From IMG/VR virus record IMGVR_UViG_2737471827_000002, positions 1 to 32,272 of that record: a stretch of 32,272 nucleotides of DNA; one strand, 5' to 3'. Positions 30,908 through 32,198 of this stretch are shown in pieces. The number at the start of each line of letters is the position of its first letter. Position 1 is the stretch's first letter. This DNA is from a virus. Taxonomy: Duplodnaviria; Heunggongvirae; Uroviricota; Caudoviricetes. The position numbers and the translations under genes were made by a program. The notes beneath the pieces were generated by a model. The model worked only from the letters and a program-made list of their open reading frames with translations. It searched no databases and was not told where the DNA came from.

Positions 30908-30940
30908 TTTCCCCTCCTCTAAAAACTATAGGCAAAGGCT

Positions 30941-30979
30941 ACAATAAAAAACTGTATTTGATCAACAGTTTTTTATTGT
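30941..30979. promoter_or_regulatory. OR-type operator: 15-bp inverted repeat ACAATAAAAAACTGT / ACAGTTTTTTATTGT with 9-bp spacer, in the divergent promoter region
   Basis: Perfect arms at 30941-30955 and 30965-30979; additional partial sites at 30919-30930 and 30984-31008; shares half-site with the palindrome at 31972-32018. Confidence 0.65.
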
Positions 30980-31015
30980 GATGCTTTTAACAGTATTTAC
31001 CTGTAAAATTGAATA

Positions 31016-31417
31016 ATGATGAGCGCCCTAGAAGTATCTATGTACAGAATCAGCAAGCTTCTTCAGGAAACTGGATGGAGCCAGGCTGAGCTTGCCCGTA
31101 GAATTGGTGTGACACAACAAACTGTTCAACAATGGGTCAGCGGTAAGGCTACACCTAAAGCCTCAAGTTTGGATAAACTGGTTGAGGTTACAGGGCATCC
31201 ATTGCATTGGTTTTTATTGCCTCCTGAAGAGGGGGAGCAAATTTTCACCCCTGACACGATGAAAATTGGTCCTCGCCAACGCGAACTGCTCCAGGCTTTT
31301 AGTGCGTTCCCTGAGGAAGACCAAGAAAAAATGCTTCAAGAAATCAAAGACAAGAAAAAATCAATGGAAGAAACCATTGCCCGGTGGCTGGCGGCACAAA
31401 AAAGCCGCCGGGCGTGA
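31016..31417 (+). CDS. CI-like prophage repressor, HTH (XRE) type, without a LexA-like cleavage domain (possibly PaaR2-like)
   Basis: 133 aa; HTH SQAELARRIGVTQQTVQQWVSG; divergent from cro-like gene; -10-like TAAAAT about 10 nt before ATG suggests a short or leaderless transcript. Confidence 0.7.
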   Translation: MMSALEVSMYRISKLLQETGWSQAELARRIGVTQQTVQQWVSGKATPKASSLDKLVEVTGHPLHWFLLPPEEGEQIFTPDTMKIGPRQRELLQAFSAFPEEDQEKMLQEIKDKKKSMEETIARWLAAQKSRRA

Positions 31418-31444
31418 CCACAGTACAAGAAGAGGAGTTATGCC

Positions 31445-31636
31445 ATGGGTACAGCCCTTTCTCCGATAGTTTCAGAATTCGAAACTATCGAACAAGAAAA
31501 CAGTTACAACGAATGGTTGCGCGCTAAAGTAGCGTCGAGCCTTGCAGACCCTCGTCCCGCAATTCCACATGACGAGGTAATGGCTGAAATGGAAAATCTT
31601 ATTGCTCAAATCGTTGTAACTAACAGGAGCGAGTAA
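31445..31636 (+). CDS. paaA2: Antitoxin of ParE-type TA pair (PaaA2-like)
   Basis: 63 aa; directly upstream of and abutting a ParE-family toxin gene; resembles PaaA2 of E. coli O157:H7 from memory. Confidence 0.6.
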   Translation: MGTALSPIVSEFETIEQENSYNEWLRAKVASSLADPRPAIPHDEVMAEMENLIAQIVVTNRSE

Positions 31637-31923
31637 TGTTACCCATTTTATGGCTACCATCTGCTCGCGATGATTTGCGTCAGATCATAACTTACATCGC
31701 CAAGGAGAACCCACCGGCAGCGCGCAGACTAAAAATACGCATTGAAACATCGGTATTACCTCTATCTGAGCATCCGTACCTATATCCACTAAGCGAACGG
31801 GTTTCAGGGGTGAGAGAGATAGTGACCCACCCTAACTACATAATCCTGTACAGAGTAGCTGCTTCAAGCATTGAGATTGTAAGCGTGATACATGCTCGCC
31901 GACAATTTCCCTCCTCTATCTGA
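31636..31923 (+). CDS. parE2: ParE/RelE-family toxin (ParE2-like)
   Basis: 95 aa; MLPILWLPSARDDLRQIITYIAKENPPAARRL...GVREIVTHPNYIILYRV...IEIVSVIHARR is a typical ParE/RelE pattern. Confidence 0.75.
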   Translation: MLPILWLPSARDDLRQIITYIAKENPPAARRLKIRIETSVLPLSEHPYLYPLSERVSGVREIVTHPNYIILYRVAASSIEIVSVIHARRQFPSSI

Positions 31924-31941
31924 GCTGAACAATTTTCATAC

Positions 31942-31965
31942 TCCCTCTTTCGAGGGATTTTTTTT
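31942..31965 (+). terminator. Intrinsic terminator after the toxin gene
   Basis: TCCCTC-TTTC-GAGGGA followed by TTTTTTTT. Confidence 0.75.
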
Positions 31966-31971
31966 GCTCAG

Positions 31972-32018
31972 ATCTACAATTAAAAACTGTTGACATAAAA
32001 CAGTTTTTAATTGTAGAT
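31972..32018. promoter_or_regulatory. OL-type operator overlapping candidate pL: 20-bp perfect inverted repeat with 7-bp spacer containing TTGACA
   Basis: ATCTACAATTAAAAACTGTT gacataa AACAGTTTTTAATTGTAGAT; TTGACA at 31990-31995 and TAGATT at 32014-32019, 18 nt apart. Confidence 0.65.
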
Positions 32019-32198
32019 TGTATTCACCAACCCACCCCGCCCCACAGAACGCAGGGCAATACTTCGAGTTACCAGGCAGTGGCAAGGGGTTAAGTAGCCA
32101 GCCCGAGGCGTAAGAACATGACGTCAGGGTTCAACTTTAATAACTATGCAGCAGGTTTTTGTTCCGCTACCCCGGCGTTAAGGGGAAATGAGGTCAGC

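Follow-up and report, generated by a model that had tools for sequence, protein, structure and literature searches.

What does a toxin-antitoxin (TA) gene pair do inside the repressor operon of a prophage, and under whose control is it expressed? This question was raised by one end of the IMG/VR virus record IMGVR_UViG_2737471827_000002, a stretch of 32,272 nucleotides (nt) from a virus of the Caudoviricetes, whose full length we call the window. At positions 30908-32020, a CI-like repressor gene was followed on the same strand by genes for a small antitoxin and a ParE-family toxin, and the three genes were bracketed by right and left operator regions (OR and OL). Our answer, to which we assign a probability of roughly 85%, was that this region is the immunity switch of a Rac/Qin-like lambdoid prophage of Escherichia coli, that the PaaA-ParE pair is cargo in its repressor operon, and that the module is an allele of paaR1-paaA1-parE1 from the O157:H7 prophage CP-933M/Sp4. 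A preliminary description of the window had listed the repressor, a 63-residue antitoxin, the ParE-family toxin, a terminator and an OL-like palindrome; each was recovered where it had been placed, with significant family matches. The genes and the terminator were as follows.

31016-31417, plus strand: immunity repressor gene, 133 amino acids (aa); Pfam HTH_3
31445-31636, plus strand: antitoxin gene of the PaaA family, 63 aa; Pfam PF21217
31636-31923, plus strand: toxin gene of the ParE family, 95 aa; Pfam ParE_toxin
31942-31965, plus strand: intrinsic terminator, a 6-pair stem (31942-31957) followed by T8

The repressor matched HTH_3 with 50.8 bits in the Pfam scan, and the best match of its DNA-binding domain among solved structures was the 434 repressor (PDB search, E = 2e-5). 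Over residues 11-130 it also aligned with the NCBIfam DicA subfamily (NF007257), although its score of 52.5 bits was below the cut-off of 101. Judged from these matches, the repressor is composed of an N-terminal 434-like helix-turn-helix (HTH) domain and a helical C-terminal domain of the PaaR/DicA type. This protein of only 133 aa had no Peptidase_S24 match in the Pfam and NCBIfam scans, and therefore induction, if any, would probably not proceed by RecA-stimulated cleavage. The antitoxin was assigned to PaaA2 by Pfam (PF21217, 78.7 bits against a cut-off of 27), by NCBIfam (NF050103, 92.6 bits against 50) and by the PDB search (PaaA2, 3zbe, E = 1.4e-23), and the family scan found no DNA-binding domain in it. 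The toxin matched ParE_toxin (PF05016, 62.7 bits against 23) and the ParE2 structure 5cw7_B (E = 2.3e-35). In an alignment with 28 relatives it agreed with all 20 invariant columns and with all 32 columns that were at least 90% conserved, and its sequence gave no sign of decay. Thus, the region contained the three components of a paaR-paaA-parE module, namely a PaaA antitoxin, an adjoining ParE2-like toxin and an upstream HTH regulator with a PaaR-type C-terminal domain.

The closest named relative of this module was found in the Sp4 prophage of Sakai (ECs_1069/1068/1067), which had the same arrangement, gene sizes, spacers, terminator hairpin and OR/OL operators, as well as the same flanking ydaS, ydaT and ydfA genes. 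Identity to the Sp4 proteins was 131/133 for the repressor (98.5%), 57/63 for the antitoxin (90%) and 90/95 for the toxin (95%). The differences were allelic only: the three proteins had 2, 6 and 5 substitutions, respectively, the spacer between the first two OR operators differed in sequence, and the OL spacer was 1 nt shorter in the window. At four antitoxin positions the window shared the residue of PaaA2 where the Sakai Sp4 protein had Thr. Sp4 corresponds to CP-933M (PMC2884950), which carries a homologue of paaR2-paaA2-parE2 (PMC8630535) that was named paaR1-paaA1-parE1 (PMC4803016).

The resemblance to paaR2-paaA2-parE2 proposed in the preliminary description held for the homology of antitoxin and toxin and for the gene order. 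It did not extend to the type of module, since the window repressor was PaaR2-like in its C-terminal domain only. We located PaaR2, PaaA2 and ParE2 in prophage Sp12 as ECs_2279-2281, whose MQKKE N-terminus and 97-nt intergenic region agreed with PMC8630535. The order in Sp12/CP-933P was the same as in the window: ydaT, ydaS, the divergent repressor, paaA, parE, a terminator, OL with the left promoter (PL), and ydfA. The window antitoxin was identical to PaaA2 at 43/63 positions (68%) and the toxin to ParE2 at 62/92 (67%). The C-terminal domain of the repressor shared 30/52 residues with PaaR2 (58%) and 52/52 with ECs_1069, whereas only 10/60 residues of its DNA-binding domain were identical to PaaR2. 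The operators differed as well: PaaR2 operators are GTTTAGTAA-type repeats, and those of the window followed the pattern ACA[AG]T-N5-A[CT]TGT. On these comparisons, the window module is an allele of paaR1-paaA1-parE1 and not of the paaR2 type. Between the two types, the antitoxin differed as a block over its last 18 residues and the toxin over its N-terminal half, which fits the reported lack of cross-neutralisation between type 1 and type 2 modules (PMC4803016). The specificity block of the window pair co-varied with the paaA1/parE1 type.

One indication that the repressor governs more than its own operon came from the operators and the promoters that they overlap. The latter are the right promoter (PR), PL and the repressor-maintenance promoter (PRM).

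30936-30965, minus strand: PR-like promoter of ydaS-ydaT, TTGATC (30960-30965, reverse complement), 18 nt, TAGCCT (30936-30941, reverse complement); read by eye
30941-30955, no strand: operator Oa, ACAATAAAAAACTGT, an exact 15-mer in the PR spacer; OR1-like
30965-30979, no strand: operator Ob, ACAGTTTTTTATTGT, abutting the PR -35 and just upstream of the PRM -35; OR2-like
30981-31009, plus strand: PRM-like promoter, weak -35 ATGCTT (30981-30986), 17 nt, -10 TAAAAT (31004-31009); read by eye
30990-31004, no strand: operator Oc, ACAGTATTTACCTGT, weaker, with one mismatch to ACARTNNNNNAYTGT, over the PRM spacer and -10; OR3-like
31976-32014, no strand: the OL operators ACAATTAAAAACTGT (31976-31990) and ACAGTTTTTAATTGT (32000-32014), both exact sites
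31990-32019, plus strand: PL-like promoter, TTGACA-18-TAGATT, 10/12 matches in the consensus scan; reads outward toward ydfA

Both operator regions contained a palindrome with fully (100%) complementary arms, at 30941-30955 and 30965-30979 in OR and at 31972-31991 and 31999-32018 in OL, and the two palindromes were 85% alike across 41 nt. The 15-mer ACAATWAAAAACTGT occurred exactly four times in the 32,272 nt, at 30941 and 30965 in OR and at 31976 and 32000 in OL, in agreement with the matching operators of the preliminary description. When up to three mismatches were allowed, seven matches were found against 1.6 expected, and none of 100 shuffled sequences reached seven. Thus, the repetition of the operator between OR and OL exceeded chance. 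The palindromes had been recognised earlier; our analysis added that each arm is itself a site, that OR has a third site at 30990-31004 and that the PL promoter lies within OL. Namely, each arm was a 15-bp pseudo-palindrome of the form ACA[AG]T-N5-A[CT]TGT. A search with this pattern returned the same four sites and, with one mismatch, a fifth at 30990-31004. The three OR sites and the two OL sites together fitted ACA[AG][TG]-N5-[ACT][CT]TGT.

The spacing of the sites was also regular, with centres 24 bp apart for Oa and Ob, 25 bp for Ob and Oc and 24 bp for the OL pair. All three OR sites were located in the 108-nt intergenic region between ydaS and the repressor gene, where they overlapped both promoters: Oa was inside the PR spacer, and Ob ended 1 nt upstream of the PRM -35. 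The geometry of PR was the mirror image of that of PL, whose -35 lay between the two OL sites and whose spacer was covered by the second one. For comparison, we collected 85 loci with the same repressor recognition helix (TQQTVQQW), which comprised 22 distinct OR sequences. The offsets of Oa, Ob and Oc from the start codon were identical in all 22 variants. The 9-nt spacer between Oa and Ob was hypervariable, with TTGAT alone retained in nearly all of them. In two diverged relatives with the same helix, the outer pentamers of the sites were kept and the central 5 bp were changed (ACAGTAAATTACTGT, ACAAGAGTTAACTGT). Other immunity types with the same TA pair each had their own motif that was common to OR and OL, and controls across types had at most 9 nt in common. 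From this conservation and covariation of the sites, together with the published data on PaaR2, we infer that the window repressor binds these operators and represses PR and PL.

The layout of the genes between the two operator regions suggested a single operon. The gap between repressor and antitoxin genes was 27 nt and contained the Shine-Dalgarno sequence AAGAGGAG. The antitoxin stop and the toxin start overlapped as TAATG (31633-31638), through which parE is predicted to be translationally coupled to paaA. On the plus strand, the consensus scan called neither a terminator nor a promoter within 31016-31923; a terminator-like match on the minus strand (31379-31362) was judged to be a chance match within the repressor gene. 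The terminator behind parE had a folding energy of -14.7 kcal/mol (z = -2.3), and the same hairpin was present in Sp4, while the type represented by locus L004 had a different hairpin at the same place. The lack of internal signals and the terminator after parE were consistent with co-transcription of repressor, paaA and parE. The start of this transcript could also be predicted. The distance from TAAAAT to the ATG of the repressor was 6 nt in all 22 OR variants, and these 6 nt varied and contained no Shine-Dalgarno sequence. A -10 element only 6 nt before the start codon implied a leaderless message, and the repressor mRNA is probably of this kind. The same geometry (GATAAT, 6 nt, ATG) was found at paaR2 of Sp12, and the paaR2 mRNA was reported to be leaderless according to 5' RACE and N-terminal sequencing (PMC8630535).

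The mechanism that we propose was put together from sequence, from comparison and from the characterised paralogue. Repressor dimers would bind the 15-bp ACA[AG][TG]-N5-[ACT][CT]TGT sites through the 434-like recognition helix (TQQTVQQ). Occupation of Oa and Ob would shut off PR and thereby the Cro-like ydaS and CII-like ydaT genes, and occupation of the two OL sites would shut off PL, from ydfA onward to dicB. Ob, which abuts the weak -35 of PRM, would probably activate this promoter, and Oc, which lies over it, would probably repress it at high repressor level. Cooperativity, and possibly looping between OL and OR, probably comes from the helical C-terminal domain, which the octameric PaaR2 also has. 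The leaderless PRM mRNA would run through the repressor gene, paaA and parE to the terminator at 31942-31965, and YdaT could add transcription from a promoter like that for repressor establishment (PRE) near 30641-30658. Since PaaA has no DNA-binding domain, the TA pair would be regulated by the phage switch. Labile PaaA would neutralise stable ParE, so that loss of the locus would poison the cell (addiction). Such addiction would serve to maintain the prophage or the immunity region, and would not be triggered by induction.

Much of this has been described for the paaR2 paralogue, where the repressor plays the part of CI, YdaS that of Cro and YdaT that of CII, OL and PL are present, and the TA pair is addictive (Jurenas et al. 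2021, PMC8630535). In that study, PaaR2 repressed PR and PL and first activated and then repressed PRM. The PL933P promoter was repressed about 100-fold by PaaR2 and likewise by YdaS, which competed with PaaR2 for the same DNA. YdaT activated a PRE-like promoter, and the switch was bistable (PMC8630535). The three genes paaR2-paaA2-parE2 formed an operon; the antitoxin was degraded by ClpAP/ClpXP, and the locus stabilised plasmids via post-segregational killing (PMC8630535). PaaR2 also had no S24 domain, and no induction by mitomycin C was observed (PMC8630535). The prophage CP-933P was described as cryptic (PMC8630535, PMC9986795), and its TA pair as a replacement of rexAB (Prolic-Kalinsek et al. 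2023, PMC9986795). Thus, the CI-like repressor, the rexAB slot and the OL/OR layout, all anticipated in the preliminary description, were supported by our analysis and had already been published for the paralogue (PMC8630535, PMC9986795).

As to what the TA pair does, maintenance of the prophage or of its immunity region was better supported than toxin release at induction. The latter had been suggested earlier for the window, but in the paralogue ParE2 activity was seen in neither of the two switch states (PMC8630535). The idea that induction releases the toxin was therefore left unsupported.

Many TA systems defend against phage, and the pair could instead be chiefly an anti-phage module that is expressed in the lysogen for abortive infection or exclusion, as a counterpart of RexAB. 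The occupation of the rexAB slot (PMC9986795) and the presence of hicAB and other cargo in the same slot of relatives would agree with such a role, which we regard as unlikely. Neither TA protein matched a PADLOC defence-system model, and the repressor matched generic HTH models only. Moreover, the Pfam, NCBIfam and PADLOC scans of the pair gave no homology to RexA or RexB and assigned PaaA and ParE only. The published evidence from the paralogue was plasmid stabilisation, with no activation of the toxin under the tested conditions (PMC8630535).

It was rather improbable that paaA-parE merely adjoins the repressor gene without a common operon and owes most of its transcription to a promoter of its own. 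A TA reporter of CP-933P was expressed appreciably in both switch states (PMC8630535), the PaaA-ParE complex was reported to repress transcription in part (PMC4803016), and stand-alone PaaA-ParE pairs were found elsewhere, as described below. However, the consensus scan found no promoter-like site on the plus strand in 31016-31445, nor did it call a terminator behind the repressor gene, and the paralogous genes form an operon (PMC8630535). The spacing also spoke for a common operon: among 80 toxin loci in IMG/VR prophage contigs, the gap between the repressor gene and paaA was short and confined to 17-30 nt in 75, and the reading frames overlapped in the other 5.

That the HTH protein is a dedicated third TA component, regulating its own operon only and not acting as an immunity repressor, was very unlikely. 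According to the summary of Hallez 2010 given in PMC4803016, the paaR-paaA-parE loci were first described as three-component TA systems, and the lack of a DNA-binding domain in PaaA would fit with this. In contrast, the same operators were present on the outward PL promoter 1 kb away, in mirror image to PR, and the repressor gene occupied the dicA/cI position between ydaS-ydaT and ydfA-dicB. Relatives without a TA pair retained the same kind of repressor, and PaaR2 represses both PR and PL (PMC8630535).

We searched the comparison loci by the C-terminal domain of the repressor and obtained 11 loci that lacked the TA pair. Two of them were TA-scar alleles, L214 (2699-2776) and L215, from IMG/VR 2675903352_000015 and 2713896909_000010, respectively, that had the repressor of the window together with its OR and OL operators. 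Both TA genes had been removed in one event, a 351-nt deletion (window 31511-31861) that fused paaA, out of frame at codon 22, to the final ~60 nt of parE; what remains is a stretch of 25 codons. Most improbable was the view that the prophage is cryptic and that its TA pair is decaying into an inactive remnant. These scar alleles and the status of CP-933M/Sp4, which is commonly considered defective, would count for it; against it, both reading frames were of full length, the conserved columns of the toxin family were intact, the antitoxin matched PaaA2 with 78.7 bits, the exact toxin sequence was present in 131 blocks of a public collection, and the window had apparent head, tail, lysis and replication genes in its open reading frame (ORF) map.

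Several points weighed against the proposed switch with its addictive cargo. The TA-scar alleles showed that the pair is dispensable and that the addiction can be escaped. Only two recognisable sites were found in OL, and the hexamers of PR and PRM were weak and were not called by the consensus scan. In the paralogue, the absence of ParE2 activity from both switch states (PMC8630535) makes addiction a tentative role for the pair. Finally, for the window allele itself it is a prediction that the genes are co-transcribed, that the toxin is active and neutralised by its antitoxin, and that the repressor binds the operators.

Compared with other known systems, the region was similar in plan to lambda. 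Like cI-rexA-rexB, it had a repressor operon with downstream cargo, then a terminator, then OL and PL, and its repressor mRNA was probably leaderless. OR was tripartite, with sites about 24 bp apart: one over PR, one over PRM and one between these two promoters. The general features of a lambdoid immunity region were present, namely a multipartite divergent OR, the same operator at a distal PL and a CII-type activator with its own site; the RecA-stimulated self-cleaving S24 domain at the C-terminus of the repressor was missing. The window also differed from lambda in having no homology to CI, RexA or RexB, in the length of its sites (15 bp rather than 17 bp), in showing two sites in OL, and in carrying a type II TA pair as cargo. 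Thus, the relation of paaA-parE to rexAB is positional only.

The flanking genes were those of the K-12 prophages Qin (dicA-dicC) and Rac (racR-ydaS-ydaT), with ydaS/ydaT or dicC on one side and ydfA-ydfB-ydfC-dicF-dicB on the other. DicA (135 aa) resembled the window repressor in size and two-domain architecture, but identity to the K-12 protein was about 25% and the score was below the subfamily cut-off. It therefore appears that the window repressor works like DicA without being a DicA orthologue. In contrast to the window, Qin and Rac had no TA pair after dicA or racR, and ydfA of Qin started 166 nt past dicA.

The glutamines in the recognition helix of the 434 repressor read ACAA. This helix (TQQSIEQ) and that of the window repressor (TQQTVQQ) both started with TQQ and had a further Q five residues on. 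Similarly, 434 operators have the form ACAA-N6-TTGT, and the half-sites of the window began with ACAA or ACAG. The differences were a site of 15 bp rather than 14 bp and another C-terminal domain, the 434 repressor being cleavable by RecA. With respect to the TA pair, the window shared with the canonical parDE loci of RK2 and Caulobacter a toxin of the ParE/RelE superfamily and an upstream, translationally coupled gene for a small labile antitoxin. Unlike in parDE, this antitoxin had no DNA-binding domain. The usual autoregulation by the antitoxin with conditional cooperativity would consequently be absent, with control passed to the phage repressor.

We then considered how widespread the module is and what it travels with. 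At a query coverage of at least 80%, it was found in 495-509 of 5,426 complete E. coli genomes, i.e., about a tenth. These were mostly Shiga-toxin-producing strains of serogroups O157, O121, O103, O45 and O111. One draft assembly (L011) was 99.9% identical to the window over 3.6 kb. In a collection of isolated phages, no record had the module, and the flanking genes alone gave matches. The TA pair could be absent from an otherwise similar region: in Qin (dicA), Rac (racR) and the phages Tritos and vB_EcoS-689R5, the flanking genes were kept and the repressor gene led straight to the PL region. The nine TA-less loci other than the scar alleles were more distantly related, and their slot was occupied by different genes. 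Taken together, these gene arrangements indicate that the TA pair is cargo of the repressor operon. In locus L242 (1165-1870, plus strand), a HicA-HicB pair (Pfam, 39 and 65 bits) followed a repressor with the PaaR-type C-terminal domain, and unrelated small genes occupied the TA slot in loci L226, L237-239 and L243-245.

Conversely, all 80 toxin loci from IMG/VR prophage contigs had PaaA and, directly upstream, a repressor with the PaaR-type C-terminal domain. These repressors had DNA-binding domains of at least four types, or at least six when PaaR2 and the type of locus L002 were included. Each type had its own set of operators, whereas the C-terminal domain and the TA cassette were common to them. 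Tentatively, the C-terminal domain of the repressor and paaA-parE might travel as one recombination unit, so that addiction shapes the exchange of immunity modules; given the gene arrangements, we consider this possible and by no means probable. In such exchanges, heteroimmune variants may arise when nothing but the DNA-binding domain, the cro-like gene and the operators is replaced, with a breakpoint inside the repressor gene, and recombinants that retained the TA pair would be the ones to survive. The existence of TA-less repressors with this C-terminal domain and of the TA-scar alleles counted against the idea. The linkage may also have arisen by homologous recombination at the conserved DNA of the C-terminal domain, with no role for the toxin.

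Locus L002 (GCA_014299135.1, 1977-2840) had two tandem repressor genes before a paaA2/parE2-like pair. One encoded a PaaR2-like protein of 123 aa (METKE...) and the other a 153-aa HTH protein whose frame continued beyond the normal stop codon and entered the beginning of paaA. This tandem arrangement looks like a recombination intermediate between immunity types. The identification of the METKE repressor as PaaR2 itself was rejected; it belonged to a further rare immunity type that was present in 19 genomes.

PaaA-ParE pairs were also widespread without a phage repressor. We surveyed one genome per species across bacteria, which gave 80 best loci (L018-L097) from 80 other proteobacterial species. 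A PaaA-like ORF, mostly of 59-66 aa, abutted the toxin gene in 77 of the 80, and the PaaR-type C-terminal domain was found in none of them. The hosts included Bartonella, Acetobacteraceae, Pseudomonas, Halomonas and Burkholderiales. In the non-enterobacterial loci, the small ORFs that preceded PaaA looked spurious or were plasmid genes, and no alternative third component was found among them. The occurrence of stand-alone pairs elsewhere suggested that the three-gene form arose by capture in enterobacterial lambdoid immunity operons. It also seems, from this distribution, that an antitoxin without a DNA-binding domain predates the capture by prophages. This bears on the question raised in 2021 of whether PaaA lost its DNA-binding domain after the insertion (PMC8630535). 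Earlier publications (Hallez 2010; Jurenas 2021; Prolic-Kalinsek 2023) already cover the module itself, its position in the rexAB slot, the analogy to CI, Cro and CII and the OL/OR layout. The descriptive gain of the present analysis was an explicit map of the paaR1 operators and promoters, not described in the cited literature on the module, as well as the finding that many immunity specificities share the C-terminal domain and TA cassette, the TA-scar alleles and the broad occurrence of PaaA-ParE as a pair on its own.

The remaining features of the immunity region were located on both sides of the module.

30226-30651, minus strand: ydaT-like gene, lambda cII analogue, 141 aa; Pfam YdaT_toxin, 39.9 bits
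30635-30907, minus strand: ydaS-like gene, Cro analogue, 90 aa, divergent from the repressor gene; Pfam YdaS_toxin, 38.8 bits
30641-30658, no strand: inverted repeat TTGATTTTCATGAATCAT that resembles the YdaT operator, located where ydaS and ydaT meet, in the PRE-analogue region
32021-32272, plus strand: PL leader (32021-32209) and start of ydfA (DUF1391, ATG at 32210), annotated as ydfA in L001 and Qin

The ydaS-like product matched PHROG 35, 'transcriptional repressor' (E = 1.5e-28), and was identical to Sakai ECs_1070 at 87/90 positions. The ydaT-like product matched PHROG 163, 'CII-like transcriptional activator' (E = 4.8e-45), with 128/141 positions identical to Sakai ECs_1071. The repeat TTGATTTTCATGAATCAT had one mismatch to the published YdaT site TTGATT-N6-AATCAA and was the sole match to it in the window when up to one mismatch was allowed, and the YdaT site of CP-933P is also located at the ydaS/ydaT junction (PMC9986795). 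Beyond ydaT were an O-like gene with a DnaT domain and then a lambda-P-like replication gene. As mechanically called, the O-like (348 aa) and P-like (221 aa) ORFs overlapped by 212 nt (29114-29325). This overlap was 8-89 nt in related loci, and L009 lacked a called O gene. P probably starts further downstream than called.

On the other side, the PL leader of about 190 nt was 91-96% identical across loci with unrelated immunity types. Segment-wise global DNA identities have a baseline of about 70% for unrelated DNA, and only high values were used, i.e., those of the flanking genes and the leader. Among the fetched loci there were 99 instances of the leader with 62 distinct sequences, and a shorter related stretch was present in Rac and Qin of K-12. 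Rfam returned nothing credible for the leader and module region, either for the whole window at the gathering threshold or for 30800-32272 at E <= 1. The leader folded no better than shuffled sequence (z = +1.1), and RNA structure was thus unsupported as the reason for its conservation. It could be a nut-like or other regulatory site, or a plain recombination linker. In the near-identical loci L008-L011, a gene with Phage_pRha/ASH domains was found downstream of PL, and we speculate that it could encode an antirepressor.

Elsewhere in the window, the ORF map alone gave the picture of a lambdoid prophage, with genes of the nin region and for lysis, head, tail and replication. The sok antitoxin RNA (Rfam RF01794) was matched in the nin region at 24628-24803 on the minus strand, with 112 bits against a gathering score of 59. 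This match suggested that the prophage also holds a type I TA locus of the hok/sok kind, i.e., a second addiction-type module. Three further small RNAs scored above their Rfam gathering scores, all on the minus strand: STnc100 (17916-18104, 113 bits), isrK (20874-20951, 66.9 bits) and the C4 antisense RNA (20764-20848, 65.7 bits). All three lay in the part of the prophage that comprises the late genes and the Q region.

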